From NCBI GenBank assembly GCA_000004985.1, contig GG738899.1: a stretch of 64,000 nt of DNA, one strand, 5' to 3'. This document shows positions 4,808-48,100 of the stretch, in pieces (within the stretch, counting starts at the first letter, position 1; every line of letters begins with the position of its first letter). Below the pieces are notes generated by a model. The model did no database searches, was not told the DNA's origin, and saw nothing but the letters and a program-made list of their open reading frames with translations. Made by a program: the position numbers and the translations under genes. This DNA comes from Naegleria gruberi (Eukaryota).

Positions 4808-5013
4808 TTTTTATTCTTAAAATTAGCTGAGAAATGAACTTGTAGGTTTATCAGAAATGAATTGGATGATCTTGTTTAAATTGGATATATTTCTCTATGC
4901 AGTTGATCGAAATGTTCAGGCAACGTTTTCAATTCAATATTGAAAATGAATTACAAAATTCTTTATTATTTATTGATAATTTATTGAGCCGAAAGTTAAT
5001 GGTTTCGACTGCC

Positions 5014-5775: not shown

Positions 5776-5939
5776 CTTGATTGCTGGGTATTTTTTTAAA
5801 TATTTGATGTTCTAAATTTAATGTTTTTCTATTCTTCTAAAAAATAGAAACAAAATTTCTAGTTTTATCTGGAAGACAAAAAACTATTGATTCATTACAG
5901 AAAATATGTCAAGTTAAATTAATAGTAATTACAATTAGT

Positions 5940-15603: not shown

Positions 15604-15675
15604 TCCCGTGTAGTCCAATGGCTAGGATACCTGGCTTTCACCCAGGAGGTCCGGGTTCAATTACCGGCATGGGAG
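15604..15675 (+). tRNA. tRNA-Glu (anticodon UUC), 72 nt.
   Basis: Acceptor stem TCCCGTG/CATGGGA (one G-U pair). Anticodon stem CCTGG/CCAGG with loop CTTTCAC (TTC). T arm CCGGG-TTCAATT-ACCGG, which has an A where the stem-closing C61 is expected. The anticodon position is anchored by ORF 15459..15641. Overall close to eukaryotic tRNA-Glu(UUC). Confidence 0.65.
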
Positions 15676-15792: not shown

Positions 15793-16332
15793 TTAAATAT
15801 TGGATTCAAATACTCGTCTCTTCTCTAGTTTTGCCTTTCCGAATTCAATCACATATCCCACAGATTTAATCTGATTCAACAACAACAAGACAAACGACAT
15901 TGAATTCAAAATAAGATGGGAGGTGCCAGCAAAAGGACCAAGATAAAAACAAGAATGCACAAAAGCAACAAAATTAACAAGGCTGTACATAAACATTCCA
16001 AGTGGATCTCTGGTTGCCATCGAATAAAAACCACATGCAACTCCAGCCATAGATAACAAGAGGATCCATACCGGTTGGGAGGTGTTAAACAAAAACAATA
16101 CTGACAATACAAAAATTAAGAACAGTTGGAATGAAAACATATTTGCCAAGTTTGCCAAATTAGCTGGTCTGTTGTATTGCTTTTTCTGTACCACTTCAAT
16201 AAATTGTTCAATGTACTTTGCGAACATATCATAGAGTGGAGTTTCGCTGTGGTTAGTGGTATTGTTATTCATTTCTCCAATAGGTGCTGAAGGTGATGCT
16301 TCCAATGTTTGATGAGCTTCGGAATTGTTCAT
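15793..16332 (-). CDS. Hypothetical small multi-pass membrane protein (179 aa).
   Basis: ATG ORF with an N-rich N-terminus and 3-4 hydrophobic helices (FQLFLIFVLSVLFLF, VWILLLSMAGVACGFY, LVNFVAFVHSCFYLGPFA, MSFVLLLL). No family motif recognised. Confidence 0.4.
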   Translation of the reverse strand: MNNSEAHQTLEASPSAPIGEMNNNTTNHSETPLYDMFAKYIEQFIEVVQKKQYNRPANLANLANMFSFQLFLIFVLSVLFLFNTSQPVWILLLSMAGVACGFYSMATRDPLGMFMYSLVNFVAFVHSCFYLGPFAGTSHLILNSMSFVLLLLNQIKSVGYVIEFGKAKLEKRRVFESNI

Positions 16333-16647
16333 TTGTTTTTTAATAGAGATGTGTTCTTTACTGCAACGTGTTTTTTATGTGACATAATTATATCTTCCTT
16401 TTCAAAAGTCTCCGCTTCACTAAATTACAGTTGCTTTTCAAGCTTATTCGTCATGTCAACTATTTTCTTAAGCTTAACATTCTCTGGTTGTGTTATATTA
16501 TTGTAACGTGGTAATGAAAGCTAGTCTATTGCTCATTCATATCCTGTGTTTAGCTGTTTATTAGAGAGTCAACCAATTCCTTAATAGCTTCAATGCTACC
16601 AAGTTATCGTTGATGATATATTAGAACACGATTAGTTTTTGAACAAA

Positions 16648-16657
16648 ACACGTGTTT
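16648..16657. promoter_or_regulatory. ACACGTGT (E-box/G-box-like palindrome) promoter-proximal motif, copy 1; about 80 bp upstream of the SPFH gene ATG. A second partial copy AACAAAACGTGTT lies 20 bp downstream.
   Basis: AACACGTGTTTC. The same core recurs at 43464..43472 and 63334..63343, in each case 30-80 bp upstream of an ATG. Confidence 0.35.
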
Positions 16658-16734
16658 CTGAAATTGGAACAAAACGTGTTATTGGGTTCTTTAAAGTTCA
16701 ACAGCAGCAATTTTGATTTCAACAACAATAAAAA

Positions 16735-18138: not shown

Positions 18139-21100
18139 ATGCCAGAAGTAATTACCAGCAGCACTGTTGGTAGAACAGCTTTCGGTCCCAACCTTTCCTT
18201 GTTGAAGGTAAGTTATTACTCATTTACATCTCGCAGTAATTTTTTTTTGACTTTCTAATAACAAACAAACTAAGAACTTCAAAATGAACATGTTGAAAAT
18301 AATATATAGGGTGGTACAATCTCTCAAACAATTGTTGGTTTAATAGTTTCTGCTTCTGTTGTTGCCTCTCTCGTTGTTACCATTGTAATGATTAGTGTTG
18401 GTGCAGGTGTTCAAAATCCAACATTGAAACCAGACTATTATGAACTTTACAAAAAGACACCATCAAAACTCTATCCTCTTCTCAATGATATTGATCCAAG
18501 AGGTGGTAATTTGACAATTTTAAATGTTACTCAACCATTACATGGTAAAGCTGTGTTATCTTCTGCTGGCATGGTTATTTATACAAGTATTGGTTCTTAT
18601 GCTGGTAATGATACTTTCGAATATTCGGTTACTAATGGATGGACAACTGCGACTGAACATGTTTATCTTAGTATTTTGAATCGTGCTCCAGAAGTAGTTG
18701 ACATGACATATACTGTTAATAAGAATTCAAAGAAAAATTCATTTGATTTATTTGGATATGAAAGTGAAATGGGTGCTAAAATTAAGGATATTGACGGTGA
18801 TGATTTATCTATTACTGACATTATTCTAGTTTCTCCTAATGTTGGTAGTTTAATCTCATTCGATCAAAATTACTTGTACTATACTCCTGCTTATGGTTTT
18901 AATAATATTGAATTACTTAACTATACAATCTCAGATGGTTATGCCAATGTTTCAGGTGTCATTACTATTAATGTTGCCAATGATAAACCAACAGCTGAAC
19001 CTGACACTTATACCATTACAAAGAATGCTTTGGGTACTTTTAATATTCTAGATAATGATTTTGATATTAATGGTGATAACATTTCAATTACCACTGCTGG
19101 TTTAGGTTCATCTGGTGTTGTTTTAATTTCCTCTGATAATTCAAATATCGAATATATTCCAAAGCCATTTGTAGCTCCATATACTGATGCTTTTGAATAT
19201 GAAATCACTGATGGAGCTTTGACAAGTTCTAGTTATGTTTTTGTAAAGATTGTCAATTCTCCTCCAACTGTTTCTGATAAGGTTTTCAATGTTGCAAAGA
19301 ATTCAAAGAATAATCTTTTAGATTTGACATTCTCTGATCCAGATGTACTTGATACTGTTACCTTGACAGCTGTTAGTAAGCTTGCTCGTGGTAATTCCTC
19401 ATTGTCTGTTACTAGCTCAATGGCATCTGTTTATTATCCAACAGGTGACTTTTTACAAGTTAAGAAGAATTTGTACTCTCTTGTTTATACACCAGATCAA
19501 GGTGTTATTTATACTGATTCCTTTAAGGTCAAAGTTAGTGATGGTGTGGATGTTGCTTATGCCACCATTACTATTAATGTAGTTCCTTCTCCTCCTGTTC
19601 CTGTTAATGATACTGTCACTTGTCAAAAGAATGGACAAGTCTCTCTTGATGTTATCAGTAATGATTATAGTGCTTCTGGTGATGTTTTGAAATTGAATTT
19701 TGCATCATCTACTTCCAATTTTGGTGGTAAACTTGTTAAGATTGATGATAATAATGTAAAATATGAGCCAGCTAAAGGATTCCTTGGTCAAGATGAAGCT
19801 CAATACATTGTTATTAACACTAACACTGATGGATCTAGTGAAGGTACTTTCAATAGAGAGGGATATGTTCTTGTTAATGTTGTGAACTCACCTCCAGTTG
19901 CTGTTCCATTAACTTTGACAGTTTCAAAGGGTTTGACAAGTGCTCTTAATTTATTAAGAGATAGTTATGATCCAAATGGTGATTCTATTAATTATAATAG
20001 TATTGCTAAGAGTACTTATGGAGTTTCATTGTCCTTCACTTCTGGTAATGCAAATGTTAATTATGCTGCCTTGTCATCTGTCTACGTTGATTATGTTGAC
20101 TTTACTGTTGTTGATATTGATGGAGCTATTTCACAAGTTGCTACAGCTACCATTAACGTTGTTAATGATGCTCCTGTTCCAGTTGATGATACTGCTGCTG
20201 TTTCTTGGAATAGAAGTATTGTCATTGATGTTTTGGCAAATGACAAGGATGTTAATGGTGATTCTCTAAGTGTTAAGAGTGTTAGTTATACTTCTAATAA
20301 TGGTGCAACTGTTACTGTTCATCAAGGTGGTAAAACTGTTCTCTACACTCCAAAGGATGGATTTGTAGGAAATGATACCTTCTCCTATGTTTGTTTTGAT
20401 GGAATTGATTCATCTGTCACTTCTGGATTGGTGACAGTTGTTGTTAGTAATACTGCTCCATCTACTTCTCCAGTTACTGTTAGTGTTCATTGGAGAGATT
20501 CTTCAGTTATTATTCCAGTATTGACCTATGCCAGTGATATTGATGGTGATTCTCTTCATGTTGAATCTTTCACACAAGGATCAAAGGGATCTGTTTCACG
20601 TGTTACACTTACTGATGGTACAGATGGTTTGCAATTTACTACTTCTGGGTCAAATAACTATGTTGGAAGTGATTCTTTTACTTTTGTTGTTAGTGATTAT
20701 GGTAAATCAAGTGTTGGAAGTGTCAACATTCAAATTACTGACACTGCTCCTGTTGCCAATGCTGATTCATTCTCAATGCATTGGAGATCAACTGATAATG
20801 TTTTATCTGTTCTTGCTAATGATGTCGATGCTAATATTGATCCAATTACTGTCAAATCATTTACTAAACCACAAGGTTTTACTGGAACACTTGTCAATGT
20901 TAATTCTCATTTGACATTTACACCAAGTGCTTCAAGTGTTGGTACTCAAACATTTACTTACACTGCTACTGATGGTCCATCAACAAGTAATGATGCTACT
21001 GTCACATTAACTGTTACCAATAAGGATATTCCACAAGATAAGACAATTTCCAAGACTGTTCACTGGTCAACTCAATCAACTGGTACTACTATTACCATTT

Positions 21101-24100
21101 TCTCAAGTGCCAATCCAGTTGATACTGATGGTGATTCATTGAGTATTTCTTCTACTCTTGTTTCTCCTTCAAGTGGTTCAATTACAATTTCCAATTCTGA
21201 TATTCCAAGTGTTGTTTACAAACAAAATACTGGATTCCTTGGAACTGATACTTTCAAGATTCAAATCTCTGATGGTGCTGCTACTGCTATTGTTACCATT
21301 TCTGTTACTGTTTATGATAATGCTCCATTGTCTAATGATATTTCTGAAAATAGACATTTTACTGAAGTTAGTAATGGATATACTAAGAATGCAATTTCAT
21401 TCTTCAATGTTACTGATATCGATTCTCAAGATAGTGTCACTGTTAAGGATGCTACTGTTGGATCTTGTGGTTCTGTCTCAAAGACTTCTTCAACTGTCAC
21501 ATTCACAAGTAATAAGGGAAGTGTTGGTGTTTGTACTGTAACTATCACATTTACTGATGGTCTATTGAATTCTGTATCCAAGTGGAATGTCAATGTTCAA
21601 AATCAAGATCCTTCTGCCGCACCAATTAGCACTACCGTTCACTGGAGTAAGAGTCAAGCTATTATTGACATTATGTCAACTTTGTCTGATGCTGATAATG
21701 ATGCCTTGTCTTATTCAGTTTCATCTTATGATTCCACATTCGGTAGCCCATCTATCAATTCTGATAAGGCTCTCGTATGGACTCTTCCACAAACACCAAA
21801 ATTAGGAACAACTCAAATTGTAATTTCATTCACAGATGGATGGGTCAGTAAGACTGCTTCTTATCCATTGATTGTTCAAAACGTTGCACCAACTGCAGTT
21901 GCAAAGACAATTTCATCAAAGTGGTCTGCATGTCTTTCTGGTATTACTATTGATATTTTGAGTGAATGCTCAGATAATGACGGAGATAGTTTGTCATTTG
22001 ACAGTACTACGCCAATTGTTACTGCTCCAGCTCAAGGAAGTGCTTCAATTGTTTCTTCAAAGGTTTATTACAAACAATCAACTGCTTCTGTTGGTTCTTA
22101 TTCCATTACTTACAAGATTACTGATGGTATTCAAACTTCATCAAACTCTATTACTGTCAATTGTGAAGATAATGCTCCTGTTGCTAATGCTGATTCAATT
22201 ACTGTTAATTGGAATACCTCTGATGTCGATATTACTATTTTGTCTAACGATATTGATTCAGATAATGATATTCTTTCTGTCACTAATCTTTCAGCTGTCA
22301 GTGAAGGTTCTTTAACTAATTTAGGTACTTTTGTTAAATATACTTTGAAGAAACCACCAACCCTTTCTGACAAGACATTCACCTATAAGGCATTCGACGG
22401 AGCTCTCTATTCCTCTGCTGCAACTGTCACTGTCAAAGTTGTCAATGCCAACAAGCCACAAATTAGTGATCAAAGTACAACTGCTCACTGGAGAACTGTC
22501 AAGGATGGTGTTTCATACACTGTCTATGATACTCTTACCGATGCTGATGGTGATTATTATTCACTTTCATTTGGTAGTGGTTCAAGTGCTTATTGTTCAC
22601 TTATTGACCTTTCGAATGGTATTAAGGGTGTTAAATATACTAGAAATGCATTCGATTCCACTGATTCTTGTAAAGTAGTTCTCTCTGATGGATTCAGTAC
22701 AAGTGCTGCCACATTAACAACCAACTCTTACAATAATGTTCCAGTTGCTGCCAACTTTACTTTAGATTATTCTGGTGGTAATATTCAATATGGTATTTCA
22801 ATTGATGTTTTGTCATCTGCTACAGATGCTGATATTCAAGATGTTCCATTCCTTTCCATTTTAAGTGTTGGAAATTCCAAATTATATGGTAGTGAAGCTG
22901 CAAATATTGTAAATGGACAAGTTTTCTATTTCCCAGATCAATCATTAGTTAAAGCATTGGGTACTGATACTGTTGCTTATACTATTAGTGATGGTTTATC
23001 AACATCTATTGGTTATCTCACTATTAACATCAAGTCAACTTCTCCATCCAGTACTGAACAATATTACAATGTTCATTTTAGATATTCAAGTGTTGGTTAT
23101 GTTTTCACACCATTGACAAAGATTGCAGATGCCACTAAACTTGATACTACTGTTGTTCAAGGAAGTGAACCAAATCAAGGTGGTTCAGTTGTTGTTTCTA
23201 GTGTTGATGAAAAGACAGTTACTTACAAACCATCTGGTTCCTATTTAGGTAATGAAATTTTCAAGTTAAAGTATTATACTGCTAGTGGTAGTAGTGATAT
23301 TACTTTTACAATGAATATTTATGATACTGCTCCAATTGCTCAATCACTTTCTGGTTCAGTTCATTTTGGTAAATCAACAACATTCAATTTAACTGCTTCA
23401 ACTTCAGATGCTGATCCATTGGATGTCAATAATTTGTCATTCTCAATTACTGGTCAACCATCTCAAGGATCTTTGAGTGTTTCATCAAATATTGCCACTT
23501 ATACTGCATCATCAACTGTTGGAACCTATTCTGGTATTTACAGAGTTTCAGATTCTATGAAATCTTCTACTGGTTCTATTACTTTGACTGTAACTAATAC
23601 TGTTCCTACTTCACAAACTAAAACCATTTCAGTTCCTTGGAGAACTTTCAAGGCAGGTTTTAATATTGATGTCTTGAATTTAGCACCAGCTGATTTTGAT
23701 AATGATGGAGATGAGTTGAGTTTGGTTTCAATTGCTCTTCAACCATCAGTTGGTTCAGTAACTAAATTGGATAGTAAGAGAGTTAGTATTGTTGGTTCAG
23801 GAAACTTTGTTGGTTCACTTACATTCAAATACATTGTTAGTGATGGTGCCTCAAATGGTCAAGTCACAACCACAGTTAACTTGAATGTTTACAACACTGC
23901 TCCAGTTGGTATTCCAGATAAGCTCTCTACCCACTGGAATGTTGCCTCAAAGACATTGAATGTTATTGCCAATGACACTGATGCTGAATCAGATCCTTTA
24001 ACTGTCACATCCGTTTATGGATCTTTAGCTTCAACTGCTCCAACTTTCACTTCTGATAGTATTGTCTATTATCCAAAGAATGCTCCATCAACAGATACAG

Positions 24101-27100
24101 TTTATTATACAGTTTCTGATAATGTTGCTACATCTATTTCATATGTCACTGTTACTGTAACTAACACTGCTCCAACTACAACTTCTCAATCATTTGTTGG
24201 TTCTTGGTCTTCAGCTAAGAATGGTTTAACATTTGACGTTGTTTCTACTTCTTCTGATGCTAATGGAGATTCATTGTCATTGCAATCATGCTCTTCATCA
24301 GTTACTTCCTCTCAAGGTAATGTCACTTGTTCTGGAAATGTCAAATTCACTCCAGCCAGTGGTTTCGTTGGTAGTATCAACCCAATCAGTTATATTATCA
24401 CTGATGGTAGAGACACTGTCACTGGTACTGTTTCCATTACAATTTTGAATAATGCTCCTACTGCTAATACTACAAATACTTTCAGATATCATTGGAGAAG
24501 TGTTTTGAGTAATACTGTTATTGATCTTTCTTCATATCTCAAAGATGCTGATGGTGATGCTGTTACTTTGACAGCTGTCACAAAGACACTTGTTGGTGTT
24601 GCTTCTCTTGGATCAGGAAATACCATTAACTATAAGGTTAATAGTGCTTACACTGGTACTGATTCAGTCACTGTCTCATTCACTGATGGATGGTCAACTT
24701 CAAGTGCCACTTTCAATATTGTAATTTACAATAACGCTCCTGTTGCTCAAAATATCATTACTTCAACTCACTTGGCAACTTTGAACATTCCTGTGATTGG
24801 ATCTGGTTCAAATCAACCAACAGATGCTGATGGAAGTGTTGATCTTAATAATTTAGTCATTTCTTCATTCTCAAATCCATCAGTTGGAAGTGTTTCTTTG
24901 AGTGGTGATAAGAAATCATTCACATTCACTAACGTTGCTGGAAATGTTGCCACTCAAACATTTACCTATGTCGTTTCAGATGGAAAGGATACTTCTGCAT
25001 CAAAGACTGTTACAATTTCCATTACAAACAATGCACCATCTGCAACTCCAATTACCATTTCTAAACATTGGGCTACAGTACAAGGTGGATTAGATATTAA
25101 TTTATTGTCTGTTGTAACTGATTCTGATGGTGATTCTCTTTCAATTACTTCATTCACTCAAACAAATAATGGAGCTGTTTCTTCAATCAATTCAACATCT
25201 GTCAAGTATATTCCAACACCATTGACTGCTGGTTTCACAACTTCATTCACCTATTCAGTTTATGATGGTTATACTACAATTTCAAATACTGTTACAATTT
25301 CAATTACCAATACACCACCTGTTGCAGTTGATGATACCATCACTGTTCACTGGACCAATAATACATTGTATTTGAAACCAGTTGTGAATGATTATGATTT
25401 GGATAATGATTACATTTATATTAACAAATTGTATCCATCTCAATTTATGAATGCCTATGCATCAATGGGTAATTATATCATCATTTCAAAGGGAACAACT
25501 ATTGTTAATAACTTTGCAAGTGTTGTCGTTCCTGGAAGCGTTGCAACTGCTGGATTTGTTAATCAAGTTCTTCAACCAACTGGCTCACTAAATGTTAATA
25601 ATGCTGCTCAACTTGCCATTGTTAATGCTGCTACTAATTTGTATCAATCATTGAGTTTATATACTTGTACTGCTTCATTAGATCAATCATTCCCATCTTC
25701 AAATGTTTTGAGTTTCTCACCTGGTGTCTATTGTTTCCCACAAGGTTTATCTGGTTCTGGTACCATCTTGTTGAGTGGTTCAGGTCTTTACATTTTCAGT
25801 ATTTCCACTAATTTGAATGCTAACTTCCAATGGTCATTCACAAATGGAGCTAGTGCTTCAAATGTTTATTGGTTGGTTGGTGCTGCTGGTATTTCAGGAA
25901 CTTTCTATGGTCATGTTTTGAGTAATGGTCAACTCAATTTCAATAATGTTGTTCAAAATGGTGTTATTATGAGTTTAGGATCAAATTCAATGAGTTTGAA
26001 TAGTGTTACTTTTGGTTCCGTTGTTATTCCAACTGGACAAACTGCCTTGGAATTACAATCTGACAAGTTGACTGTCTATTATAAGAATACTTTCATTAAT
26101 GGACCAGCAACTGACTCATTCCAATACACAATTACTGATCAAATTGCCACTTCTAATGTTGCTATTGTCAAATTGGTCTTTACCAATACTGCTCCAGTTG
26201 CCACTTCATTCTCAGCTGGTAAAGTTACATGGAAAAATACCTTAACAACTGCAAGTGTTGTTTCCAAGTATTGTTCTGATGCTGATAAGGATTCATTGAG
26301 TTTATTCGGAGTTACTCAAGGTAAATACGGAACTACTACAGTTACCGATTCTACAAGTGGTACCATTGTTTATACACCAAGTAGTTCAATTTCCTATACC
26401 TCTGTTGATTCCAATGGAGCTAGTTATGTAACTGATCAAATTACTTTTGGATGTTATGATGGAGCTCAAGTTACATATAACACATTCTCTGTTGTCGTTT
26501 ACAATACAGCTCCAAAGAGTGCTTCTAAATCACTTAGTGTTCAAAGAGATACTTCAAATCCAACTGTTACATTGAATGATTTGTTGGTTGGTGCTACAGA
26601 TGCTGAGGGTGATTCAATTTCTGTATCAAGTGTTTCAATGATTTCACAAAATACTGGTGCTTCTGTCTTGTTATCATCCAATACTGCTAAACTCACTTAC
26701 ATAACTTCATATTTAGGTTCAATTGTCTTTTCATTCACTTTAACTGATGGTCAATTGAGTTCAACTTATAATTATAATGTCACTATTACTGGTGCTCCAT
26801 TCTATTGTGTTGATTATACCATTAGTACTACCAAAGATTCCTCTGCTGTCACTTTCGAAACTGATTTAAAGTCTAAATTGTCAAGCTATTGTGTTAATGA
26901 TGTTTGTACTTTGGCTCTTGCTTCAACTGCATCACTCAATGGAGTTGGTTCAATTGCTGCCAATGGTAATAACTTGTTGACATATACTCAAAATTCCAAG
27001 TCATCATCAAATGGAGAATCCTATTCCACTTACTCATATTCTAATAGGGCAGGTCAAAGCGCAATTTGTAAGATTATCATTAATCAACCAAATAATGCAC

Positions 27101-29412
27101 CAACTGTCTATGATTATACTTATAGTTACTCAATTAGTAGAGCTTCTAATGATTATGTTACATTTGATTATGTTAGTTTATCATCCTCTGATGATCCAGA
27201 TGCTTCTGACTCAATTGTATTGAGTAGTATTTCAAGTGTTGGTACATGTACAACTAGTTCTATCAGTAGTTTGTCAATTACTAGTGATAACCAAATCAAA
27301 TTCTTGAGAAATCCATCATTCATTGGAAGTTGTTCATTCTCTTTGGTTGTTTCTGATAGTGATTTGAGAAATCCAATCTCTAAAACTGCAAAAATTACAA
27401 TCAATGCCATTTCTTCTCCACCAGTTGCTGTCAATGATGCTGTTTCTACAACCTATAACACATATATTGATATTCCAGTTTCCACATTACTTGGAAACGA
27501 TTATGATTCACTTGGTGGTACATTCTCATTCACTGGTATTAATTGCCCAACAGGTGATTCAACTTATTGTACAGCAGGCACTCCAACTATTCTCAATCCA
27601 TCTGATCCTGCAAATACAAGAATCATCAGAGTTCAACCAATTAAGGGATCTTGTAATTCTCAAAAATTCGTTTATGGTATCAAATCTGATTCTGATTCAA
27701 CAACTGCCACAGCTATTGTTACAGTTTCTTATACCAAATGTACATGTTCTTTGAATATGGATATTGTATTTGTTTTGGATGGTAGTTCATCTATTGATGC
27801 AGGAAATTGGATTAACATGCAAAACTTTGCATCCAATTTAACTGTTGGATTTGGTTCAAACATTTCACCAACTGCCACCAAGATTGGTATCATTCAATTC
27901 TCTACAACAACTGTAACTCACTTGGATTTGAAAGATGGTACTTCCAAGACAGCTGTTCTTAATGCCATTTCATCAGCTGGTCAACTCAAATCCAGTACCA
28001 ACTCAATTTTAGGTATTAACAATGCTGTTTCAATGGTTTTAAGTCAAGGTAGAAAGGATATCACTAGAAAACTCTTAATTCACATTACAGATGGTATGTC
28101 CAATTTACCTTGTGGTATGGGAGCTTGTCGTGCCATGTATGGTAGTGATAAGTCATTATATGGATCTGTTCCTAATTATTGTAAGTCACCTCGTTTCCCA
28201 GGTACTGATGCAACAATATGCTCATGGAATGAACCACTCAGTAGATGTAATCCTTGTTCTGATGCTACTCTTAGATCAACTGATTTGAATTCTTGGACAG
28301 TTGGAGGTGCTTCAAATCCAGAAAAATCAACTTATGGATCTATTTGGAATTGGAGACAATTAGTTGTAGGTATTGGTGATGGTTTGAGTTCTGGGTATGG
28401 ACAACTTCAAATTCAAAAGATGAATTACGATCCAAACAATTTAATTGTTGTCGATTGGTCTGATTTGAGCTCTGTTTATCAAACTGTTATTGATAATAGT
28501 TGTAATCTTGTCGATTCCACTCAAACCAACGTTCTTGTTCCACTTTCAAGTTCTGGATATTCTATTCAATATCTTGGAAAGACATTGTCCAAATCAAGTT
28601 ACCTTAATTATGAAGCAACCATTTCAACATTCACTTATCGTGTTAGTGTCTCTTCATCAGCACCTGCTTTACAAAGATTTACCTTAGGATTACAACCTGG
28701 TTACAATCAAGATAACTTTGTAAATTATGATCCATACTTCCCAGTTTTCATTGGTCAAGACACTACCACTAATTTGAATGGTTTCACTTTCTTATCACTT
28801 CCAAATTCATATACAATTGCAGCTGGTTCATCAGATACCTATACATTGAGTATTGCTGGTGATATTCCTGAAGGTGTTATTACTTATGGTATGTCGGGTG
28901 GTTCACAATACACACAAGGAACTGTTAAGGGACCAAGTGGAGTGATCAACTCAACCACAGTTGCTCTTCCACCAAATATTAATTACGGTGATGATTCAAG
29001 TTATAGAACTACCTATTGTTCCTCAACCAAATGTTATTTCTTTACCAAGATGAATTATGCCTATCGTATTGAAGCAATGAGTAAGATTTGTAAATATTGG
29101 TCTGCCAATGCAACACTAGTTCAAATTCAATCATCCACTGAAAAGACCACACTCATCAATAATGTTTTACCTTACGATGAGAGTGCTACCTTCTTCTTAG
29201 GTACTAAGGATTCCGATATTGCAGTTGGATCAACAACTACATGGCAAGATGGTACATCCATGTCCTCCTATACAAATTATCAAAGCAAACAACCTGGTTC
29301 CTACACTATTATTTATGCTTCATATAATGCTAATTCTCCAACTGGTACTTGGTGGAAGGGAGGTAGTTATGATACCAACACTCAATATTTACTTTGTCAA
29401 TTTAAGAAATAA
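18139..29412 (+). CDS. Giant type-II membrane adhesin-like protein (~3,720 aa). Exon 1 18139..18207, intron 18208..18309, exon 2 18310..29412. Architecture: TM anchor, about 28 tandem cadherin-like Ca-binding repeats, a DUF3494 (ice-binding-like) beta-helix, vWA domain, C-type lectin domain.
   Basis: MPEVITSSTVGRTAFGPNLSLLK|GGTISQTIVGLIVSASVVASLVVTIVMISVG is the TM segment. It is followed by ~95-100-aa repeats, each ending V-x-N-x-A-P-(V/T)-A (VVNDAPVPVDD, VSNTAPSTSP, VYNTAPVGIPD, ITNNAPSATP...) and containing D-x-D-G-D-S-L. The DUF3494-like stretch is at ~25440..26070; vWA has DIVFVLDGSSSID (MIDAS); the CTLD has KCYFF...WQDG...QP...WWKGG...CQF. The single 11.1-kb ORF is anchored to ORF 18388..29412. 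Confidence 0.8.
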
Positions 29413-29521
29413 GTCTATTGAGAGGCCAAATGTTAATTAAATAAACCCAATCTTTATAAAATACCATTCGGAGTATATTCCACTCCTCGCAACTACGGTT
29501 CAGCTCCTACTAAATGAAATA

Positions 29522-29529
29522 GAGCGCAC
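29522..29529. promoter_or_regulatory. GC-rich GAGCGCAC core-promoter-like motif about 50 bp upstream of ATG 29577.
   Basis: AGAGCGCACT here. GAGCGCAC at 31566..31573 lies ~35 nt upstream of acid-phosphatase ATG 31534 (minus strand), with CTGCGCGC nearby. GAGTGCGCAC at 41124..41133 lies ~20 nt upstream of F-box ATG 41150. Confidence 0.35.
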
Positions 29530-29576
29530 TGGTTCTTTTGCAATAATTTGAAACAAACAAAAAAACAAACAACCAA

Positions 29577-30215
29577 ATGATTAAGCTTGCCATTGCTCTC
29601 ATTCTCCTTGTTGGATGGATCACCTTGTTGGTCCAATCGAAGGATGTTAAATTTTGCATGCCTCCTATTGCTTCCTTCACACAAACCACGAAACATGTTT
29701 CATATTATGGAACGGCCAGAAATTCCTCCTACAAGCTCAAAATTCAATACGATAGTAATTTGAATAAGCAACGCACAGATACTTATGAACAAGATGGCAC
29801 CTTGATCTCATCTGTAATTTCCTTACTAGATGCCTCTAATAATACCATTCTCTATTCCATAAAGAATAATGAATGTTCCTGTATTAATGAAGGTCAGACC
29901 GATGGAGCTATTTGGGCTCAATGTATAACTCAACCAGTTTTAGCTAAGGAAACTATTGCTGAACAACCAGCTCTCAAAGTTGGATACAACACTACAAATT
30001 CTCAATGGACTAATGATGAATATTATTGGATTGTTCCAGCTAGAGAACCAGGTTATTGGTGGTTCCTTTCACAAATTGAATATGTTATTGATAGGAATAA
30101 TGTTGAATTGGGAAGTAGTACTTTTTCTGATCATACTCCTAATGTGAATTATCTTTCACTTGTTGTTCCAACTAATTGTCCTTCAATGGGTGATTGTCCA
30201 TCTCCAAGAAGATGA
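29577..30215 (+). CDS. Small secreted Cys-containing protein (212 aa) with a signal peptide; possibly ependymin-related (low confidence).
   Basis: MIKLAIALILLVGWITLLVQS is a signal peptide. Conserved-looking Cys positions (FCMPP..., ECSCINEG, AQCITQ, TNCPSMGDCPSP), N-glycosylation sites, and no TM segment. Confidence 0.5.
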   Translation: MIKLAIALILLVGWITLLVQSKDVKFCMPPIASFTQTTKHVSYYGTARNSSYKLKIQYDSNLNKQRTDTYEQDGTLISSVISLLDASNNTILYSIKNNECSCINEGQTDGAIWAQCITQPVLAKETIAEQPALKVGYNTTNSQWTNDEYYWIVPAREPGYWWFLSQIEYVIDRNNVELGSSTFSDHTPNVNYLSLVVPTNCPSMGDCPSPRR

Positions 30216-30316: not shown

Positions 30317-31534
30317 TTATTTATCAACTCTAAACTTGAAAATTTCTTTACCATTCTCATCCATTGCAGTGACGAAAATGAAATCCTTTTGAACTTCAAC
30401 ACTGAAAAATCCAGGTGCAGTATAAACATTCAAAGATAATGGATTGTAAACATCTGGAATGATGTTTGAACTACCAGCACCTGAAATAATGTAATTTGTC
30501 TTGTGTTCTGGTTCTTTAAGCCAATTGAGAAGATGTACGTGACCACAAGTGTACAATGGCACTTGATACTTTTCCATGTATGGCAAGAAGGTATTCATCA
30601 TATCCTTACTATTTCCACCAATACCTCCAGAATAAACTATTTAAATTAATAAGAAATGTGAAATTTCAAAACCTACTGTGATGATGACCAAATACTAAAG
30701 TCCAAGAATTATTCTTTCCTTGATTTGTAGATAAAACCCCATCTAACATGTCCAATTGTTCTTGCTTTCTTTTATATTGAGATTCTAAATTAGAACTCTT
30801 CATTAATGGATCAGTCCAGAATGAAACAAATGGACTTGTATCTAACATGACCATTGAAACATCAAATCCACTCAATGTAGAATTCTTAACTAGTGTGTAA
30901 AAATGTGAAGGAAGAACCCAACGATTACTAATCTTGGTATAATCAATTTGAGCTTGAACATTTCCTCTGTAATCTATTTCGAATAATAACAATAAATATA
31001 AATCTCAACCAAAATATACTTACCATGATTTCCTAAAAGCATATGCCATTTCAAATCCTCAATTCCATCGACATTATAAATATCTTCAAACTTGCTCTTG
31101 AATTGTTCATCATTAACATTTTCAACACCATAATTATAAATATTATCACCAATACCAATTACAAAATGACATTTTTGTGTTTTACAGAACTTTCCCATAC
31201 TGGCAGCAACAGCCTTTTGACCATCATCTGCACGTCCCATATCTCCAACAACAAGAAAACGTAAAAAATCATCTGATGCTGTATATTCAGGAGTAGGATA
31301 AATATTTACATTCTTTCTTCCTAAATAAATTGCAATAGCAATAGCAATTACAATACATGTAATTAAACAACACAATCCACAGCCTAGCAAACTACCCACA
31401 CAAATCTTTTTATTCCGAGACCATTTTGTTTTTTTAGGAAGTACATATTTACTATCATCTGCCAACTCGATATCCCTCAAATTGCTATCCGAGCCATTAG
31501 AGAGTGCATCATCATAGTGGAATGATCGAGACAT
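30317..31534 (-). CDS. Membrane-anchored purple/tartrate-resistant acid phosphatase type-5-like metallophosphoesterase, 3 exons: 31024..31534 (ATG 31534), 30677..30973, 30317..30636; introns 50 and 40 bp.
   Basis: Metallophosphatase motifs GDMG, GDNIY, GNH|D (split by intron 1), GHHH, GHVH, and overall similarity to ACP5/PAP (…VAGHYPVWS… versus GHHHIYSGG…). N-terminal TM helix ICVGSLLGCGLCCLITCIVIAIAIAIYL. All junctions are phase-consistent with the three ORF-track frames. Confidence 0.75.
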
Positions 31535-31962
31535 TTTTTTATGAGGCTGAAATTGAATTTTTGAAGAGCGCACTTTCTAAAAACTTAGCGCGCAGTTTTT
31601 TTTCCAATTAGAAGTAAAAAAGATAACAATAATTGGCTCTTAATGTTTCAATTGGTTGAGAGGAAGGTATCTAATTGAAATTGGAATCAAACGAGAAGGG
31701 TGATACAGTATTAAGGTATGAATAACATGTTTAAGATTCATCATCCTATTAATTCCTCTTTACTATTCGAAACTTGGAGATTGATATTATTATTCATGAA
31801 AATCTTTCAAAGTGTTACATGGGTATTTGGCTGAGTCTTATTATGTACAATAGGAGAAATGCGGGTCACCCACACTGTTTGAGAATGTTACACATGAAAA
31901 AGCATCTATCTGTTGTGTAAATAAATATTTGGACAACTCTGAAAGTTATTGAAAAAAAAAGA

Positions 31963-36923: not shown

Positions 36924-39605
36924 TTATTGGTCTGACGAGGAAGCAACATTTGAAGAAACAAAAATAATCTTTTCGATTGTGGTAAAGAGTTCAACCAATT
37001 CTTTTTCTTTGGAGAGTGACATTCCACTTTCTTCATCATTCTTCTTCTTTTTAGCAACTAAACATTCAACAACTAATTGTTGACATTTTGTTAAAGTTGG
37101 AATAATCAAATCTTGATAAGCTGATCCTAATTGACCTTTCGAATATTCTTCCATAATAGAAGGTTCTTCAAGATAGGATAAAACAGGTGAAACTAACTTT
37201 CCAGGAATGAATAAAAGAATTGGCTTATCTCCCATCATTAATAAATATTGACAAATTGAAATCAATCTTGTACCATAAATAATAGCTCCAGAAGATAAAC
37301 TATCATCACTCAATTTAGCCAAATGTTCAACATGATTAATCTTCAATTCTTGTTTTCTTTCTTTCAAATAAGTTTTTTCTCTCTTTTTATCTAAAATCTT
37401 AATAAAAACGCTAAATTGTTTTGCAGTAAATTCAAATTGACTAATAAATGATTGCAATGTAGTATTATTAGCATTCAAACTTTCAACAAGAGTATTTAAT
37501 TCCTTAACTTCCTCCTCTCTTGTCTTATCAAGTTCAACCTTCTGATTAAGTTGTTTCATTAATAATTTAATTTCTCTATTTAATTCAACAAATTGAGTTT
37601 GTTGTTCTTCACTTGCCATTGATAATAAAGTATTATATTCTCTAATGAAATGTAAATTCTTTTCATTAATGTTAATACTTGTAGTATCAACAGGTTTCTT
37701 ACTACTTGATTGTTTACCAGATTGTTGTGTTGGAGTTGATCTTAATAAATTTTTACAAGTATCATAAACCATTAAATAAACAATCATTGTACATTTAGTT
37801 TTGATAATATGTTTTTCAACTGGAACAATAAATTCCTTTTCAATACTTTCTTTACGTTGTCTATGTAAAATTTCAATAGATTTGTTATGTATAACAATTT
37901 GTGTATATAATTCATTGAGTTTTTCTTCAACATTAAGTTCACTGCTCAATTTTTGTTCCAATTTCATAGTTTGTTGATTAACTATTTGTTCCTTGGTTTC
38001 TAAATATAATTTTTCAAGTTTAGGAATGAAATAATTTACAATAGATTCAATAATAGAATCATCTGATCCACCAAACTTGTTAATCATATTTTCATTTTCT
38101 TTATCATTATCTAAATATACAAGTAATTGTTTTTCAATGTGTGAATAAATATCATCCTTCTTTGGTAGTAATTTCTTAATTTGATCATTTTCATTAGAAA
38201 CTGGTGTTGATGATTTGGTTGATTTACTCTTTTGCTTCTTATTCTTATCATTTGAAGGTTGGGAAGGAGGAGGTGTACTAGTTGTTGATGGATTACTCTT
38301 TAAATAAATTTCAATAGCTTGAATAGCAATAGATTTGAATTGATCATTTAAGATTTGATCAATCATTTCAACAGTCATAATATATCTATTATCAAAAACA
38401 ATAATATCCTTGATATTCTTACTAAGAGTAATATACTTATCAACTAATTGTTTCATTTCACATGAAGTATCAATAAGAACACAATGATCACCACCATTAT
38501 TTTCAATATGTAATGGAATTGATTTGTGTTTATCATTATTACCATTAATAGTAGTATCGAATATATTTTTAAAAGATTCAATCATTTTCATGTGAATAAT
38601 AATTTCATCTTCAATATTAATAAGATCATGTTCTTTCATTTCTCCATAACCTGTTAAATAGTTAATAATTTGTTGTGTATTTTTAAATGCTTTATATCCT
38701 AACATTGATTCAACTCTTTCAACAGAAACATAACCATTACTATGAATAAATTTACAAACTTGATCAGTTGCCATCTTTTCATAAATATTTGGAACATATA
38801 AAGTACTATTAACTTGTAAAGTACCATTAATTTGTTTGTTCTTTATCAAATCTTTAACAATATTTTGATAAAGTTCTAATTCAATTTCAATATCATCAGC
38901 ATATTCATTACCATTACTTTCATTCATTAAATAAAACTTTTTAGTTACTTTTAATAAATCATTACATTCCATAGATCTACTAGTAATACTATTACAAATA
39001 CCAATTGTAATAGATTTTAAATTATTAATATATTTCTCTGTATATAAAGAGTTATTACTAAATATTGTTCCATTTAATAATAAGTGCATATATTTTGTAA
39101 TGATATGTTCTTTAATAAAATCAGAAGGTAAAAACAATTGTTTTGTTAATGTTCCGATATAAATATAACCTGATAATTTGAGTAATTCATTAATTTCCAT
39201 AACAACTGATTCAAGATAGGAAGGTGTCAAAATTTCGCATCCATTAATCAAGTCAGGAAGAACAATTTGTTTTTGTATTAAATTATGAATAGGTTGTTCT
39301 AAATAGGTAAAATCGACTCGTAATAATTTTGGTAATTCATTCTTATTAATTCTTCCTCCATATTTTTCTAATAGAATTTGTAATTCATATTCAATTTGAT
39401 CTCTAGTAATATATTCTTTACCATCAGATGTAAAACATAATTGTTCAGCAAAATTAGGATCTTGCTTTTTAATATATTGGATCAATTCAATAATGTTATG
39501 TTCATTCAATTTGTAAGATCCACCCGAAAGTGATTCTTGTTGTACTTGTTCAAATTGCTGTTGCAATTGTTCAATAGATAATTCCATTAAATCTATATCA
39601 GCCAT
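36924..39605 (-). CDS. UFL1: E3 UFM1-protein ligase 1 (UFL1) homologue, 893 aa, single exon.
   Basis: The N-terminus ...CFTSDGKEYITRDQIEYELQILLEKYGGRINKNELPKLLRVDFTYLEQPIHNLI matches human UFL1 (...[53 protein letters not shown]). Length and overall organisation are the same. Confidence 0.8.
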   Translation of the reverse strand: MADIDLMELSIEQLQQQFEQVQQESLSGGSYKLNEHNIIELIQYIKKQDPNFAEQLCFTSDGKEYITRDQIEYELQILLEKYGGRINKNELPKLLRVDFTYLEQPIHNLIQKQIVLPDLINGCEILTPSYLESVVMEINELLKLSGYIYIGTLTKQLFLPSDFIKEHIITKYMHLLLNGTIFSNNSLYTEKYINNLKSITIGICNSITSRSMECNDLLKVTKKFYLMNESNGNEYADDIEIELELYQNIVKDLIKNKQINGTLQVNSTLYVPNIYEKMATDQVCKFIHSNGYVSVERVESMLGYKAFKNTQQIINYLTGYGEMKEHDLINIEDEIIIHMKMIESFKNIFDTTINGNNDKHKSIPLHIENNGGDHCVLIDTSCEMKQLVDKYITLSKNIKDIIVFDNRYIMTVEMIDQILNDQFKSIAIQAIEIYLKSNPSTTSTPPPSQPSNDKNKKQKSKSTKSSTPVSNENDQIKKLLPKKDDIYSHIEKQLLVYLDNDKENENMINKFGGSDDSIIESIVNYFIPKLEKLYLETKEQIVNQQTMKLEQKLSSELNVEEKLNELYTQIVIHNKSIEILHRQRKESIEKEFIVPVEKHIIKTKCTMIVYLMVYDTCKNLLRSTPTQQSGKQSSSKKPVDTTSININEKNLHFIREYNTLLSMASEEQQTQFVELNREIKLLMKQLNQKVELDKTREEEVKELNTLVESLNANNTTLQSFISQFEFTAKQFSVFIKILDKKREKTYLKERKQELKINHVEHLAKLSDDSLSSGAIIYGTRLISICQYLLMMGDKPILLFIPGKLVSPVLSYLEEPSIMEEYSKGQLGSAYQDLIIPTLTKCQQLVVECLVAKKKKNDEESGMSLSKEKELVELFTTIEKIIFVSSNVASSSDQ

Positions 39606-41022: not shown

Positions 41023-41149
41023 GCAATGCAACTTCAAATTGGCATATGAAGCCAATATAAACTCATTCAATTTGAAGTGCAACTCTCAATTTGAAACTAT
41101 TCATCCCACCCATTGAAACGAAAGAGTGCGCACCAATTCAAACAAAAAA

Positions 41150-42655
41150 ATGTTACCACAACAAGAAAGCCTTCATGAACAAGAAGAGGTTAATTCAAAT
41201 AGTATTATGGAAGATGCTATTGTTGAAGCCTTTGAGAATGATGATGATTATATAACTGATCCAACAGTTAATATTGATAATTTTGATACATTATCTTTAT
41301 CATCACTTTCATCATTGGTGATCGGAAGTAATAAATCACATCATGATTCAATGACAGGATCTTCATCTCTATTAGAAGAACATCACGAATTATTACTCAA
41401 TTCATCTCGTAATATTATTGCTAATTCATTCAATGAACTTCCGAATGAAATACTTGTACACATCTTAATTTACTTGAATGGTGCTCAAATTATTAAATTA
41501 GAATGTTTATCAAAGAGATTTTATCAATTAATTCATCATGAAGATGAATCAGAACGTAATTATAATAAAAAGATTAGAAGAGGAAGAATACCTTCAAAGG
41601 AAAAGAGAAAACATCAAAGAAGATTGTCAATTAATTTGGCAAATATGATTGCAAGCTCTGGTTTAGATTTGAATTCAATCACTTCTGGTTATGAATTTTG
41701 GATGTTTTTAAATGAAGTACACTTTAGAGTATGTATTTACAATATTTCACATTTACAAATACTTTTATACAACTATAATATATTATTCAATATCTTTTAC
41801 AAATAATACTAATACAAATAATAATATAAATAGGATGAAACTCAAAAACGTAGAAGAGATTATTCTTCAGCAATTCAACCTAGAATTTTCTACATGTATC
41901 AATTAAGAGTTCAATGGTTAAATGAAAAGTATAATTTAGAAAAAGCCATCAGATCACTTGAAGATGAAATTACATCTCATTCCTATTTTAATGAGGTTTG
42001 CATATTTTCACCACATTTACTCTATCTTCAATATTTATTATTTTTATTAGATAGAGATTATGCTGCTATGGATTTGAGATTTCATGCATTCAATGAATTG
42101 AATTTAAATATTGATACTCATGTTAAACCACTTATTAATCATATTTTACATTCAATTTATGATAATAGTGATTCCAAATTATCAATGGTTGCTATTGTCA
42201 ATTTGGCATCACCTGATATTATTAAGAGACCAATTACTAGCAGTTCAGTACATGGAATTACACAAGAATCTCAAGCTCAACAATTACTTGAAGAAGCTTA
42301 TGCTCATGATTTTAAAGATAGACAAGATGTTGGTATGATTAAATTCATTCATGAAATGCATTTCAATAATCCAATTACAACCTCAACTTCAATGAGTAAT
42401 AGAACATTGAGTAAGGTTGATAATGAAAAAGTTCAATCATCACTCAATACAATCTATGCTAAATGGTTTAAGAAATGGGGTGAAATTATCAAAACAAAAC
42501 CTGAATATTCCTCACTCAATTATTACAATACTAGACAAATTGAAACCATTCAAATCAAGTCAGGATTTACCTATGATAATTTATTGAGATGTGCAAATGG
42601 TTGGTTAAAGAGAGAATATGTTTATGCAAGACTTTTAAAGAAGGAATTACAATAA
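41150..42655 (+). CDS. F-box domain protein. Exon 1 41150..41728, intron 41729..41833 (GTATGT...AATAG), exon 2 41834..42655.
   Basis: F-box: LPNEILVHILIYLNGAQIIKLECLSKRFYQLI. The splice joins ...FWMFLNEVHFR|DETQKRRRDYSSAIQPRIFYMYQLRV..., bridging ORFs 41126..41806 and 41894..42655 in phase. The true ATG is MLPQQE at 41150. Confidence 0.6.
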
Positions 42656-43547: not shown

Positions 43548-43598
43548 NNNNNNNNNNNNNNNNNNNNNNNNNNNNNNNNNNNNNNNNNNNNNNNNNNN
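43548..43598. other. Assembly gap (51 N).
   Basis: Run of n. Confidence 0.99.
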
Positions 43599-45163
43599 GT
43601 GATTCAACTTATTGTACAGCAGGCACTCCAACTATTCTCAATCCATCTGATCCTGCAAATACAAGAATCATCAGAGTTCAACCAATTAAGGGATCTTGTA
43701 ATTCTCAAAAATTCGTTTATGGTATCAAATCTGATTCTGATTCAACAACTGCCACAGCTATTGTTACAGTTTCTTATACCAAATGTACATGTTCTTTGAA
43801 TATGGATATTGTATTTGTTTTGGATGGTAGTTCATCTATTGATGCAGGAAATTGGATTAACATGCAAAACTTTGCATCCAATTTAACTGTTGGATTTGGT
43901 TCAAACATTTCACCAACTGCCACCAAGATTGGTATCATTCAATTCTCTACAACAACTGTAACTCACTTGGATTTGAAAGATGGTACTTCCAAGACAGCTG
44001 TTCTTAATGCCATTTCATCAGCTGGTCAACTCAAATCCAGTACCAACTCAATTTTAGGTATTAACAATGCTGTTTCAATGGTTTTAAGTCAAGGTAGAAA
44101 GGATATCACTAGAAAACTCTTAATTCACATTACAGATGGTATGTCCAATTTACCTTGTGGTATGGGAGCTTGTCGTGCCATGTATGGTAGTGATAAGTCA
44201 TTATATGGATCTGTTCCTAATTATTGTAAATCACCTCGTTTCCCAGGTACTGATGCAACAATATGCTCATGGAATGAGCCACTCAGTAGATGTAATCCTT
44301 GTTCTGATGCTACTCTTAGATCAACTGATTTGAATTCTTGGACAGTTGGAGGTGCTTCAAATCCAGAAAAATCAACTTATGGATCTATTTGGAATTGGAG
44401 ACAATTAGTTGTAGGTATTGGTGATGGTTTGAGTTCAGGGTATGGACAACTTCAAATTCAAAAGATGAATTACGATCCAAACAATTTAATTGTTGTCGAT
44501 TGGTCTGATTTGAGCTCTGTTTATCAAACTGTTATTGATAATAGTTGTAATCTTGTCGATTCCACTCAAACCAACGTTCTTGTTCCACTTTCAAGTTCTG
44601 GATATTCTATTCAATATCTTGGAAAGACATTGTCCAAATCAAGTTACCTTAATTATGAAGCAACCATTTCAACATTCACTTATCGTGTTAGTGTCTCTTC
44701 ATCAGCACCTGCTTTACAAAGATTTACCTTAGGATTACAACCTGGTTACAATCAAGATAACTTTGTAAATTATGATCCATACTTCCCAGTTTTCATTGGT
44801 CAAGACACTACCACTAATTTGAATGGTTTCACTTTCTTATCACTTCCAAATTCATATACAATTGCAGCTGGTTCATCAGATACCTATACATTGAGTATTG
44901 CTGGTGATATTCCTGAAGGTGTTATTACTTATGGTATGTCGGGTGGTTCACAATACACACAAGGAACTGTTAAGGGACCAAGTGGAGTGATCAACTCAAC
45001 CACAGTTGCTCTTCCACCAAATATTAATTACGGTGATGATTCAAGTTATAGAACTACCTATTGTTCCTCAACCAAATGTTATTTCTTTACCAAGATGAAT
45101 TATGCCTATCGTATTGAAGCAATGAGTAAGATTTGTAAATATTGGTCTGCCAATGCAACACTA
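43599..45163 (+). CDS. 3'-partial second copy (paralogue or haplotig) of the giant adhesin gene covering the last cadherin-like repeat, vWA and most of the CTLD. It has no 5' part (gap) and no stop (runs into the next gap).
   Basis: 1,565 nt co-linear with 27554..29118 at >99.8% identity. I see only 3 substitutions (aag>aaa, gaa>gag, tct>tca), all synonymous in the adhesin frame. Confidence 0.6.
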
Positions 45164-48100
45164 NNNNNNNNNNNNNNNNNNNNNNNNNNNNNNNNNNNNN
45201 NNNNNNNNNNNNNNNNNNNNNNNNNNNNNNNNNNNNNNNNNNNNNNNNNNNNNNNNNNNNNNNNNNNNNNNNNNNNNNNNNNNNNNNNNNNNNNNNNNNN
45301 NNNNNNNNNNNNNNNNNNNNNNNNNNNNNNNNNNNNNNNNNNNNNNNNNNNNNNNNNNNNNNNNNNNNNNNNNNNNNNNNNNNNNNNNNNNNNNNNNNNN
45401 NNNNNNNNNNNNNNNNNNNNNNNNNNNNNNNNNNNNNNNNNNNNNNNNNNNNNNNNNNNNNNNNNNNNNNNNNNNNNNNNNNNNNNNNNNNNNNNNNNNN
45501 NNNNNNNNNNNNNNNNNNNNNNNNNNNNNNNNNNNNNNNNNNNNNNNNNNNNNNNNNNNNNNNNNNNNNNNNNNNNNNNNNNNNNNNNNNNNNNNNNNNN
45601 NNNNNNNNNNNNNNNNNNNNNNNNNNNNNNNNNNNNNNNNNNNNNNNNNNNNNNNNNNNNNNNNNNNNNNNNNNNNNNNNNNNNNNNNNNNNNNNNNNNN
45701 NNNNNNNNNNNNNNNNNNNNNNNNNNNNNNNNNNNNNNNNNNNNNNNNNNNNNNNNNNNNNNNNNNNNNNNNNNNNNNNNNNNNNNNNNNNNNNNNNNNN
45801 NNNNNNNNNNNNNNNNNNNNNNNNNNNNNNNNNNNNNNNNNNNNNNNNNNNNNNNNNNNNNNNNNNNNNNNNNNNNNNNNNNNNNNNNNNNNNNNNNNNN
45901 NNNNNNNNNNNNNNNNNNNNNNNNNNNNNNNNNNNNNNNNNNNNNNNNNNNNNNNNNNNNNNNNNNNNNNNNNNNNNNNNNNNNNNNNNNNNNNNNNNNN
46001 NNNNNNNNNNNNNNNNNNNNNNNNNNNNNNNNNNNNNNNNNNNNNNNNNNNNNNNNNNNNNNNNNNNNNNNNNNNNNNNNNNNNNNNNNNNNNNNNNNNN
46101 NNNNNNNNNNNNNNNNNNNNNNNNNNNNNNNNNNNNNNNNNNNNNNNNNNNNNNNNNNNNNNNNNNNNNNNNNNNNNNNNNNNNNNNNNNNNNNNNNNNN
46201 NNNNNNNNNNNNNNNNNNNNNNNNNNNNNNNNNNNNNNNNNNNNNNNNNNNNNNNNNNNNNNNNNNNNNNNNNNNNNNNNNNNNNNNNNNNNNNNNNNNN
46301 NNNNNNNNNNNNNNNNNNNNNNNNNNNNNNNNNNNNNNNNNNNNNNNNNNNNNNNNNNNNNNNNNNNNNNNNNNNNNNNNNNNNNNNNNNNNNNNNNNNN
46401 NNNNNNNNNNNNNNNNNNNNNNNNNNNNNNNNNNNNNNNNNNNNNNNNNNNNNNNNNNNNNNNNNNNNNNNNNNNNNNNNNNNNNNNNNNNNNNNNNNNN
46501 NNNNNNNNNNNNNNNNNNNNNNNNNNNNNNNNNNNNNNNNNNNNNNNNNNNNNNNNNNNNNNNNNNNNNNNNNNNNNNNNNNNNNNNNNNNNNNNNNNNN
46601 NNNNNNNNNNNNNNNNNNNNNNNNNNNNNNNNNNNNNNNNNNNNNNNNNNNNNNNNNNNNNNNNNNNNNNNNNNNNNNNNNNNNNNNNNNNNNNNNNNNN
46701 NNNNNNNNNNNNNNNNNNNNNNNNNNNNNNNNNNNNNNNNNNNNNNNNNNNNNNNNNNNNNNNNNNNNNNNNNNNNNNNNNNNNNNNNNNNNNNNNNNNN
46801 NNNNNNNNNNNNNNNNNNNNNNNNNNNNNNNNNNNNNNNNNNNNNNNNNNNNNNNNNNNNNNNNNNNNNNNNNNNNNNNNNNNNNNNNNNNNNNNNNNNN
46901 NNNNNNNNNNNNNNNNNNNNNNNNNNNNNNNNNNNNNNNNNNNNNNNNNNNNNNNNNNNNNNNNNNNNNNNNNNNNNNNNNNNNNNNNNNNNNNNNNNNN
47001 NNNNNNNNNNNNNNNNNNNNNNNNNNNNNNNNNNNNNNNNNNNNNNNNNNNNNNNNNNNNNNNNNNNNNNNNNNNNNNNNNNNNNNNNNNNNNNNNNNNN
47101 NNNNNNNNNNNNNNNNNNNNNNNNNNNNNNNNNNNNNNNNNNNNNNNNNNNNNNNNNNNNNNNNNNNNNNNNNNNNNNNNNNNNNNNNNNNNNNNNNNNN
47201 NNNNNNNNNNNNNNNNNNNNNNNNNNNNNNNNNNNNNNNNNNNNNNNNNNNNNNNNNNNNNNNNNNNNNNNNNNNNNNNNNNNNNNNNNNNNNNNNNNNN
47301 NNNNNNNNNNNNNNNNNNNNNNNNNNNNNNNNNNNNNNNNNNNNNNNNNNNNNNNNNNNNNNNNNNNNNNNNNNNNNNNNNNNNNNNNNNNNNNNNNNNN
47401 NNNNNNNNNNNNNNNNNNNNNNNNNNNNNNNNNNNNNNNNNNNNNNNNNNNNNNNNNNNNNNNNNNNNNNNNNNNNNNNNNNNNNNNNNNNNNNNNNNNN
47501 NNNNNNNNNNNNNNNNNNNNNNNNNNNNNNNNNNNNNNNNNNNNNNNNNNNNNNNNNNNNNNNNNNNNNNNNNNNNNNNNNNNNNNNNNNNNNNNNNNNN
47601 NNNNNNNNNNNNNNNNNNNNNNNNNNNNNNNNNNNNNNNNNNNNNNNNNNNNNNNNNNNNNNNNNNNNNNNNNNNNNNNNNNNNNNNNNNNNNNNNNNNN
47701 NNNNNNNNNNNNNNNNNNNNNNNNNNNNNNNNNNNNNNNNNNNNNNNNNNNNNNNNNNNNNNNNNNNNNNNNNNNNNNNNNNNNNNNNNNNNNNNNNNNN
47801 NNNNNNNNNNNNNNNNNNNNNNNNNNNNNNNNNNNNNNNNNNNNNNNNNNNNNNNNNNNNNNNNNNNNNNNNNNNNNNNNNNNNNNNNNNNNNNNNNNNN
47901 NNNNNNNNNNNNNNNNNNNNNNNNNNNNNNNNNNNNNNNNNNNNNNNNNNNNNNNNNNNNNNNNNNNNNNNNNNNNNNNNNNNNNNNNNNNNNNNNNNNN
48001 NNNNNNNNNNNNNNNNNNNNNNNNNNNNNNNNNNNNNNNNNNNNNNNNNNNNNNNNNNNNNNNNNNNNNNNNNNNNNNNNNNNNNNNNNNNNNNNNNNNN

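Follow-up and report, generated by a model that had tools for sequence, protein, structure and literature searches.

A self-complementary GCGC-centred motif upstream of three Naegleria gruberi gene starts: a candidate transcription-factor site

Three short GC-rich sites that fit the self-complementary consensus AGWGCGCWCT, with half-sites AGWGC and GCWCT, are located immediately upstream of three start codons in a 64,000-nucleotide stretch of Naegleria gruberi DNA, referred to here as the window. The sites exist, are statistically non-random, fit the palindromic consensus and are confined to promoter-proximal DNA. The consensus is a candidate site for a transcription factor or a general regulatory factor acting in a subset of compact promoters, a reading of the sequence that we regard as about evenly balanced between correct and incorrect. 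The motif is a statistically credible small-sample candidate of an ordinary feature class; it is uncorroborated in relatives and nothing decisive stands against it.

The window is part of an N. gruberi nuclear scaffold, with ~ 32% G+C, uniform composition, high gene density and short intergenic regions, and it includes a 14.4 kb gap of Ns (45164–59552). A UFL1-type ORF (36924–39605, minus strand) and a kinase (2474–4807, minus strand) are each 100% identical to predicted N. gruberi proteins, and the homology search with the kinase returned no N. gruberi paralogues on other scaffolds. The UFL1, NSRP1 and thioredoxin genes share synteny with other Naegleria, which together with the uniform composition makes a viral or foreign insertion unlikely. 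The sole RNA gene detected in the window by ARAGORN and Rfam is a tRNA-Glu(TTC) gene (15604–15675, plus strand), located between protein-coding genes. CpG is strongly depleted, with 395 dinucleotides observed versus ~ 1263 expected (observed/expected ratio, o/e, of 0.31); the ratio is 0.27 in ORFs compared with 0.51 in non-ORF DNA. This depletion stands beside published methylomes with almost no 5mC in N. gruberi, the reported level being 0.28% without CpG preference (PMC12344493).

Site 1 (29521–29530) has the sequence AGAGCGCACT, with the reverse complement AGTGCGCTCT. It matches the consensus at 10 of 10 positions and is centred at −51 from the ATG at 29577, the start of a 212-aa ORF (29577–30215, plus strand) that has a hydrophobic N-terminus and no Pfam family. 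An exact-product look-up did not find this ORF as an annotated product. The initial annotation, made from the sequence, had placed a secreted-protein gene here; the ORF is present, but the hydrophobic N-terminus is the sole indication of secretion. Site 1 is also ~ 75 nt 3′ of an AATAAA string at 29441, AAUAAA being the N. gruberi poly(A) signal (PMC11529991), and this string belongs to the preceding giant gene. The location of this poly(A)-signal string places site 1 within ~ 100 nt that must accommodate the entire promoter and leader of the following gene. The giant gene itself (18388–29412), which encodes a 3674-aa protein with repeats and a VWA domain, has a duplicated 3′ part: the segment 27554–29118 recurs at 43599–45163, 16,045 nt downstream, with 1562/1565 identity. 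The second copy, flanked by a run of Ns at 43548–43598 and by the 45164–59552 gap, represents an assembly artefact or else a segmental duplication of very recent date. Should it extend further, the gap would contain another copy of site 1.

Site 2 (31565–31574) is the same 10-mer, AGAGCGCACT on the plus strand, again with 10 of 10 consensus positions, and its centre is at −35 from the ATG at 31534 (minus strand) of a three-exon acid phosphatase gene (30317–31534, minus strand). The site lies in a divergent intergenic region and is thus also ~ 390 nt upstream of the ATG (31963) of a TLDc gene. A weaker companion site, AGCGCGCAGT (31587–31596), matches 8 of 10 consensus positions and is separated from site 2 by 12 bp. 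The assignment of an acid phosphatase on the minus strand in the initial annotation is supported by the Pfam Metallophos match. The protein is a TRAP/ACP5-type metallophosphoesterase, as are its closest named homologues, and its N-terminus aligns with that of the N. lovaniensis orthologue. The protein database contains no 100% match to it, the best being an N. lovaniensis protein with 68% identity, which suggests that the N. gruberi gene set lacks this gene. In N. fowleri, an acid-phosphatase paralogue is found within 8 kb of genes for a second metallophosphoesterase and a ZIP-family metal transporter (L009, 2659–6589 and 10001–11312).

Site 3 (41125–41134), AGTGCGCACC, matches the consensus at 9 of 10 positions, and GTGCGCAC within it is a perfect palindrome. 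The site is centred at −20 from the ATG at 41150, which begins the first exon or ORF of an F-box gene (41150–41806, plus strand); the Pfam F-box match bears out the earlier naming of this gene. The three genes that carry sites are closely spaced and have no obvious common function.

The strings on which attention had originally been drawn are all present. The 8-mer GAGCGCAC occupies 29522–29529 on the plus strand, as proposed, and has a second plus-strand copy at 31566–31573; the CTGCGCGC proposed near the acid phosphatase gene occurs as its reverse complement, GCGCGCAG, at 31588–31595; and GAGTGCGCAC spans 41124–41133. Relative to the ATGs at 29577, 31534 and 41150, the strings extend from −55 to −48, from −39 to −32 and from −26 to −17, respectively, and the GCGCGC string adjacent to site 2 is at about −61 to −54. 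The spacing of 20–55 nt originally given is therefore close, but the actual range is about 17–61 nt. Sites 1 and 2 are identical 10-mers on the same strand, yet their downstream genes are on opposite strands, such that the 8-mer runs in the sense direction relative to the gene in the case of site 1 and in the antisense direction in that of site 2. Inspection of the flanks of the three sites showed them to be unrelated, with no extended similarity around the sites. Direct reading identified TATA-like strings 40–70 nt upstream of sites 1 and 3.

The motif is rare in the window outside these promoters. The claim that these were almost the only intergenic GCGC strings proved to be an understatement: GCGC occurs seven times in the window, two copies being in ORFs (14573 and 27059) and all five intergenic copies being in the three regions described above. 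Two exact copies of GAGCGCAC were counted on both strands versus 0.08 expected, and none of 100 shuffles yielded two. Allowing up to one mismatch, the consensus AGWGCGCWCT has four matches versus 0.83 expected, a number reached in 0/100 shuffles. The fourth match (12680, AGAGCACTCT) is without the GCGC core and appears to belong to coding sequence that closely follows a splice acceptor.

Because the motif had been picked by eye, a k-mer scan was run over all words. It covered the 100 nt upstream of 19 plausible gene starts and all 6-, 7- and 8-mers, with reverse complements merged. Words were scored by the binomial probability of their promoter count under a first-order Markov model, and the best score was set against the best obtained when each promoter was shuffled with its dinucleotides preserved. 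The best 6-mer was GCGCAC (4/300 shuffles as good) and the best 7-mer was AGTGCGC (0/300). The latter stayed in first place when the promoter length was set to 60 or 150 nt and when a more inclusive set of 26 ORF starts was used (shuffles as good: 0/200, 1/200, 0/200 and 6/200). In addition, every GCGCAC in the window is located within 100 nt upstream of an ATG, a region that makes up 3.7% of the sequence. The recurrence of the motif, present at three of the window's ~ 19 gene starts, is real at roughly the 0.5–3% level per window and is convincing for one window. The sample comprises three sites in one 50-kb stretch; as the window was singled out in a search for oddities, the result carries a look-elsewhere effect should many windows have been screened.

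Other words are also associated with promoters in the window. AACACGT, which includes the E-box-like palindrome AACACGTGTT, has eight copies versus 1.7 expected (0/100 shuffles) and is confined to promoters. Four copies are clustered in the divergent region 16333–16734 (sites at 16366, 16647–16656 and 16674), between the ORF 15793–16332 (minus strand) and the Band-7/SPFH gene starting at 16735 (plus strand), and a copy at 63291 is 32 nt upstream of the ATG at 63259 (minus strand). Its statistical support is no weaker than that of the GCGC motif, and the word is probably a bHLH-type site. The AT-rich AATTTGAA / TTCAAATT occurs 26 times and is enriched close to gene starts, with seven copies no more than 100 nt upstream of a start codon (p about 3e-5). 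It is found near 5 of the 19 gene starts, namely those of 9256–10275 (minus strand), 29577, 33315, 41150 and 60467–61291 (minus strand), and it thereby adjoins sites 1 and 3. As a general promoter word, it is more credible than the GCGC motif.

The comparison with other Naegleria used a 132 kb sample comprising N. lovaniensis (L001, L003 and L008), N. fowleri (L002, L009 and L010) and two further lineages (L004–L007). No GCGC-type motif was found upstream of the acid-phosphatase orthologues of N. lovaniensis (L003) and of the two further lineages (L004–L006 and L007). However, the control intergenic region between UFL1 and NSRP1 is completely unalignable among three species, and the absence of the motif at an orthologue is for this reason weak evidence. 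The synteny around the 212-aa ORF and the F-box gene is not kept in other Naegleria, and metagenome scans for relatives of the 212-aa ORF and of the ORF downstream of the F-box exon gave no matches. Among 59 proximal promoters GCGC showed no enrichment, with 0/31 in N. lovaniensis and 1/28 in N. fowleri, and the top de novo words in these promoters were simple CAA/CAT repeats. GTGCGC is intergenic only twice in the 132 kb, 72 nt upstream of an N. fowleri XPB-type helicase gene and 227 nt upstream of an UNC-93 gene. A copy of GAGCGCAC in N. lovaniensis (L001, 8769) was discounted, as it is in coding sequence for the C-terminus of NSRP1. The comparison argues that the motif would not be a genus-wide promoter word. 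Literature searches with the motif strings and for promoter motifs in Naegleria and Heterolobosea found no relevant description.

The factor-site reading is favoured because the motif is a self-complementary 10-bp sequence that occurs in either orientation, at variable distances from the ATG and in a minority of promoters, and that contains a CpG although the genome is poor in this dinucleotide. AGWGCGCWCT would be bound as double-stranded DNA, in very compact proximal promoters, by a sequence-specific protein that is probably a homodimer; with the half-sites AGWGC and GCWCT, this binding would not depend on orientation. The CpG-containing word would be kept by selection for binding, despite the CpG depletion of the genome. 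The bound factor may activate or repress the adjacent gene, or may exclude nucleosomes or insulate tightly packed genes from one another. Protein binding, recognition by a dimer and any effect on transcription are steps that we infer from the motif itself. A more specific version, in which the consensus is read by an N. gruberi-specific dimeric factor that jointly controls a local group of adjacent genes, or is an MRE-like metal switch that arose outside animals, is quite improbable. If the N. gruberi-specific factor were real, its site would be the first cis-regulatory code word described in Heterolobosea. More generally, a palindromic site that had been validated would provide an initial way into the study of transcriptional regulation in this deep-branching lineage, and could aid the design of constructs for expression in Naegleria, the genus of the pathogen N. 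fowleri.

The simplest alternative is that three GC-rich words fell into three promoters by chance and have no function. There are just three sites, and the motif is absent from the orthologous and other sampled Naegleria promoters. Once corrected by the Bonferroni method, the simple positional test is of borderline significance (0.0367^3 = 5e-5, multiplied by about 1,900–6,000 k-mers), one robustness run gave 6/200, and the weaker CpG depletion of non-ORF DNA raises the intergenic background for such words. However, dinucleotide shuffles of each promoter matched the observed score in only 0–4 of 200–300 trials in most settings. Moreover, two of the sites have an exact 10-mer in common and the third agrees with the same palindromic consensus at 9 of 10 positions. 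We consider a chance origin rather unlikely on balance. The initial annotation had instead proposed a core promoter, initiator or 5′-UTR element, that is, a directional element close to the start site that positions RNA polymerase II or acts in the mRNA leader. Its promoter-proximal placing and non-random recurrence hold, and the 17–61 nt that separate the sites from the ATGs, in promoters of perhaps just ~ 100 nt (for site 1, from the AATAAA at 29441 to the ATG at 29577), are compatible with such an element. The TATA-like strings upstream of sites 1 and 3 would likewise allow the motif to sit at or after the start site. Nonetheless, a specific element type is weakly supported because the motif is found at only 3 of ~ 19 starts, with an ATG distance that varies by 30 nt, in both orientations and with a self-complementary consensus. 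The more widespread promoter-enriched word in the window is the AT-rich AATTTGAA. A directional core or leader element is accordingly judged distinctly unlikely.

A metal-response-element (MRE) site was considered after the 8-mer led to a match in the literature. TGCGCWC, present in all three sites, fits the MTF-1 core TGCRCNC, a second core-like TGCGCGC is near site 2, and the acid phosphatase, one of the targets, is a di-metal enzyme. The core TGCRCNC is nevertheless not over-represented in the window, with seven copies versus 10.7 expected and at least seven in 93/100 shuffles; it is the GCGC-centred palindrome alone that is over-represented, and MREs are not palindromic. Furthermore, the three targets include no metallothionein or metal-transporter genes. 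MTF-1 is a metazoan protein that, to our knowledge, does not occur outside animals. The resemblance to the metal-response core is probably coincidental, and an MRE-like site is very improbable.

Several other explanations were rejected. A role at 3′ ends or in termination does not fit site 2, because its promoter is divergent and no gene ends upstream of it. An origin from a tRNA gene or a Pol III promoter (the TAGAGCGC of the D-arm and A box) was dismissed as ARAGORN and Rfam find just the tRNA-Glu gene and none at the sites; a tRNA-like TAGAGCGCA...GGTTC resemblance is seen at site 1 only. A CpG island or an effect of methylation is contradicted by the non-ORF CpG ratio given above, by promoters that are not CpG-rich overall, and by the low 5mC level without CpG preference. 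None of the four sites shows, on direct reading, the E2F pattern TTTSSCGC (TTT followed by SSCGC). An NRF1 site (GCGCATGCGC) does not fit either, since every site has one GCGC core only and not tandem GCGCA half-sites with the spacing of that consensus. Lastly, a dispersed repeat or duplicated promoter is inconsistent with the unrelated flanks, and the sole long repeat of the window (27554–29118 / 43599–45163) excludes the sites.

Among known systems, core promoter elements such as TATA and Inr, including the Inr-like elements of Trichomonas, Entamoeba and Giardia, resemble the motif in being within a few tens of nucleotides of the gene start. They are, however, found in most promoters, with a set direction and position, whereas AGWGCGCWCT is self-complementary, varies in its distance from the ATG and occurs in a minority of promoters. 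The MREs bound by MTF-1 resemble it in their 7-bp core, found at all three sites (TGCGCTC, TGCGCTC and TGCGCAC, in addition to TGCGCGC), and in the occurrence of two copies in one promoter, whereas the MRE itself is asymmetric, usually present in multiple copies and located upstream of metallothionein or ZnT genes. The sites of the yeast factors Reb1, Abf1 and Rsc3 (CGCGC) are also GC-rich words in AT-rich intergenic DNA, placed in either orientation ~ 50–150 bp from the gene start. Sites of general regulatory factors usually occupy a large share of promoters and are conserved across a genus, in contrast to a motif carried by 3 of 19 gene starts and not seen in the other Naegleria species sampled. 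The palindromic sites of homodimers comprise the E-box CACGTG of bHLH-Zip proteins, the NRF1 site GCGCATGCGC and the Kaiso/ZBTB33-type site TCTCGCGAGA. AGWGCGCWCT matches none of these consensus sequences and is known here from the sequence of one window. Nonetheless, like the motif, these sites are short (8–10 bp), self-complementary and CpG-containing, and they are independent of orientation, located near the gene start in a subset of promoters and kept in CpG-poor DNA.
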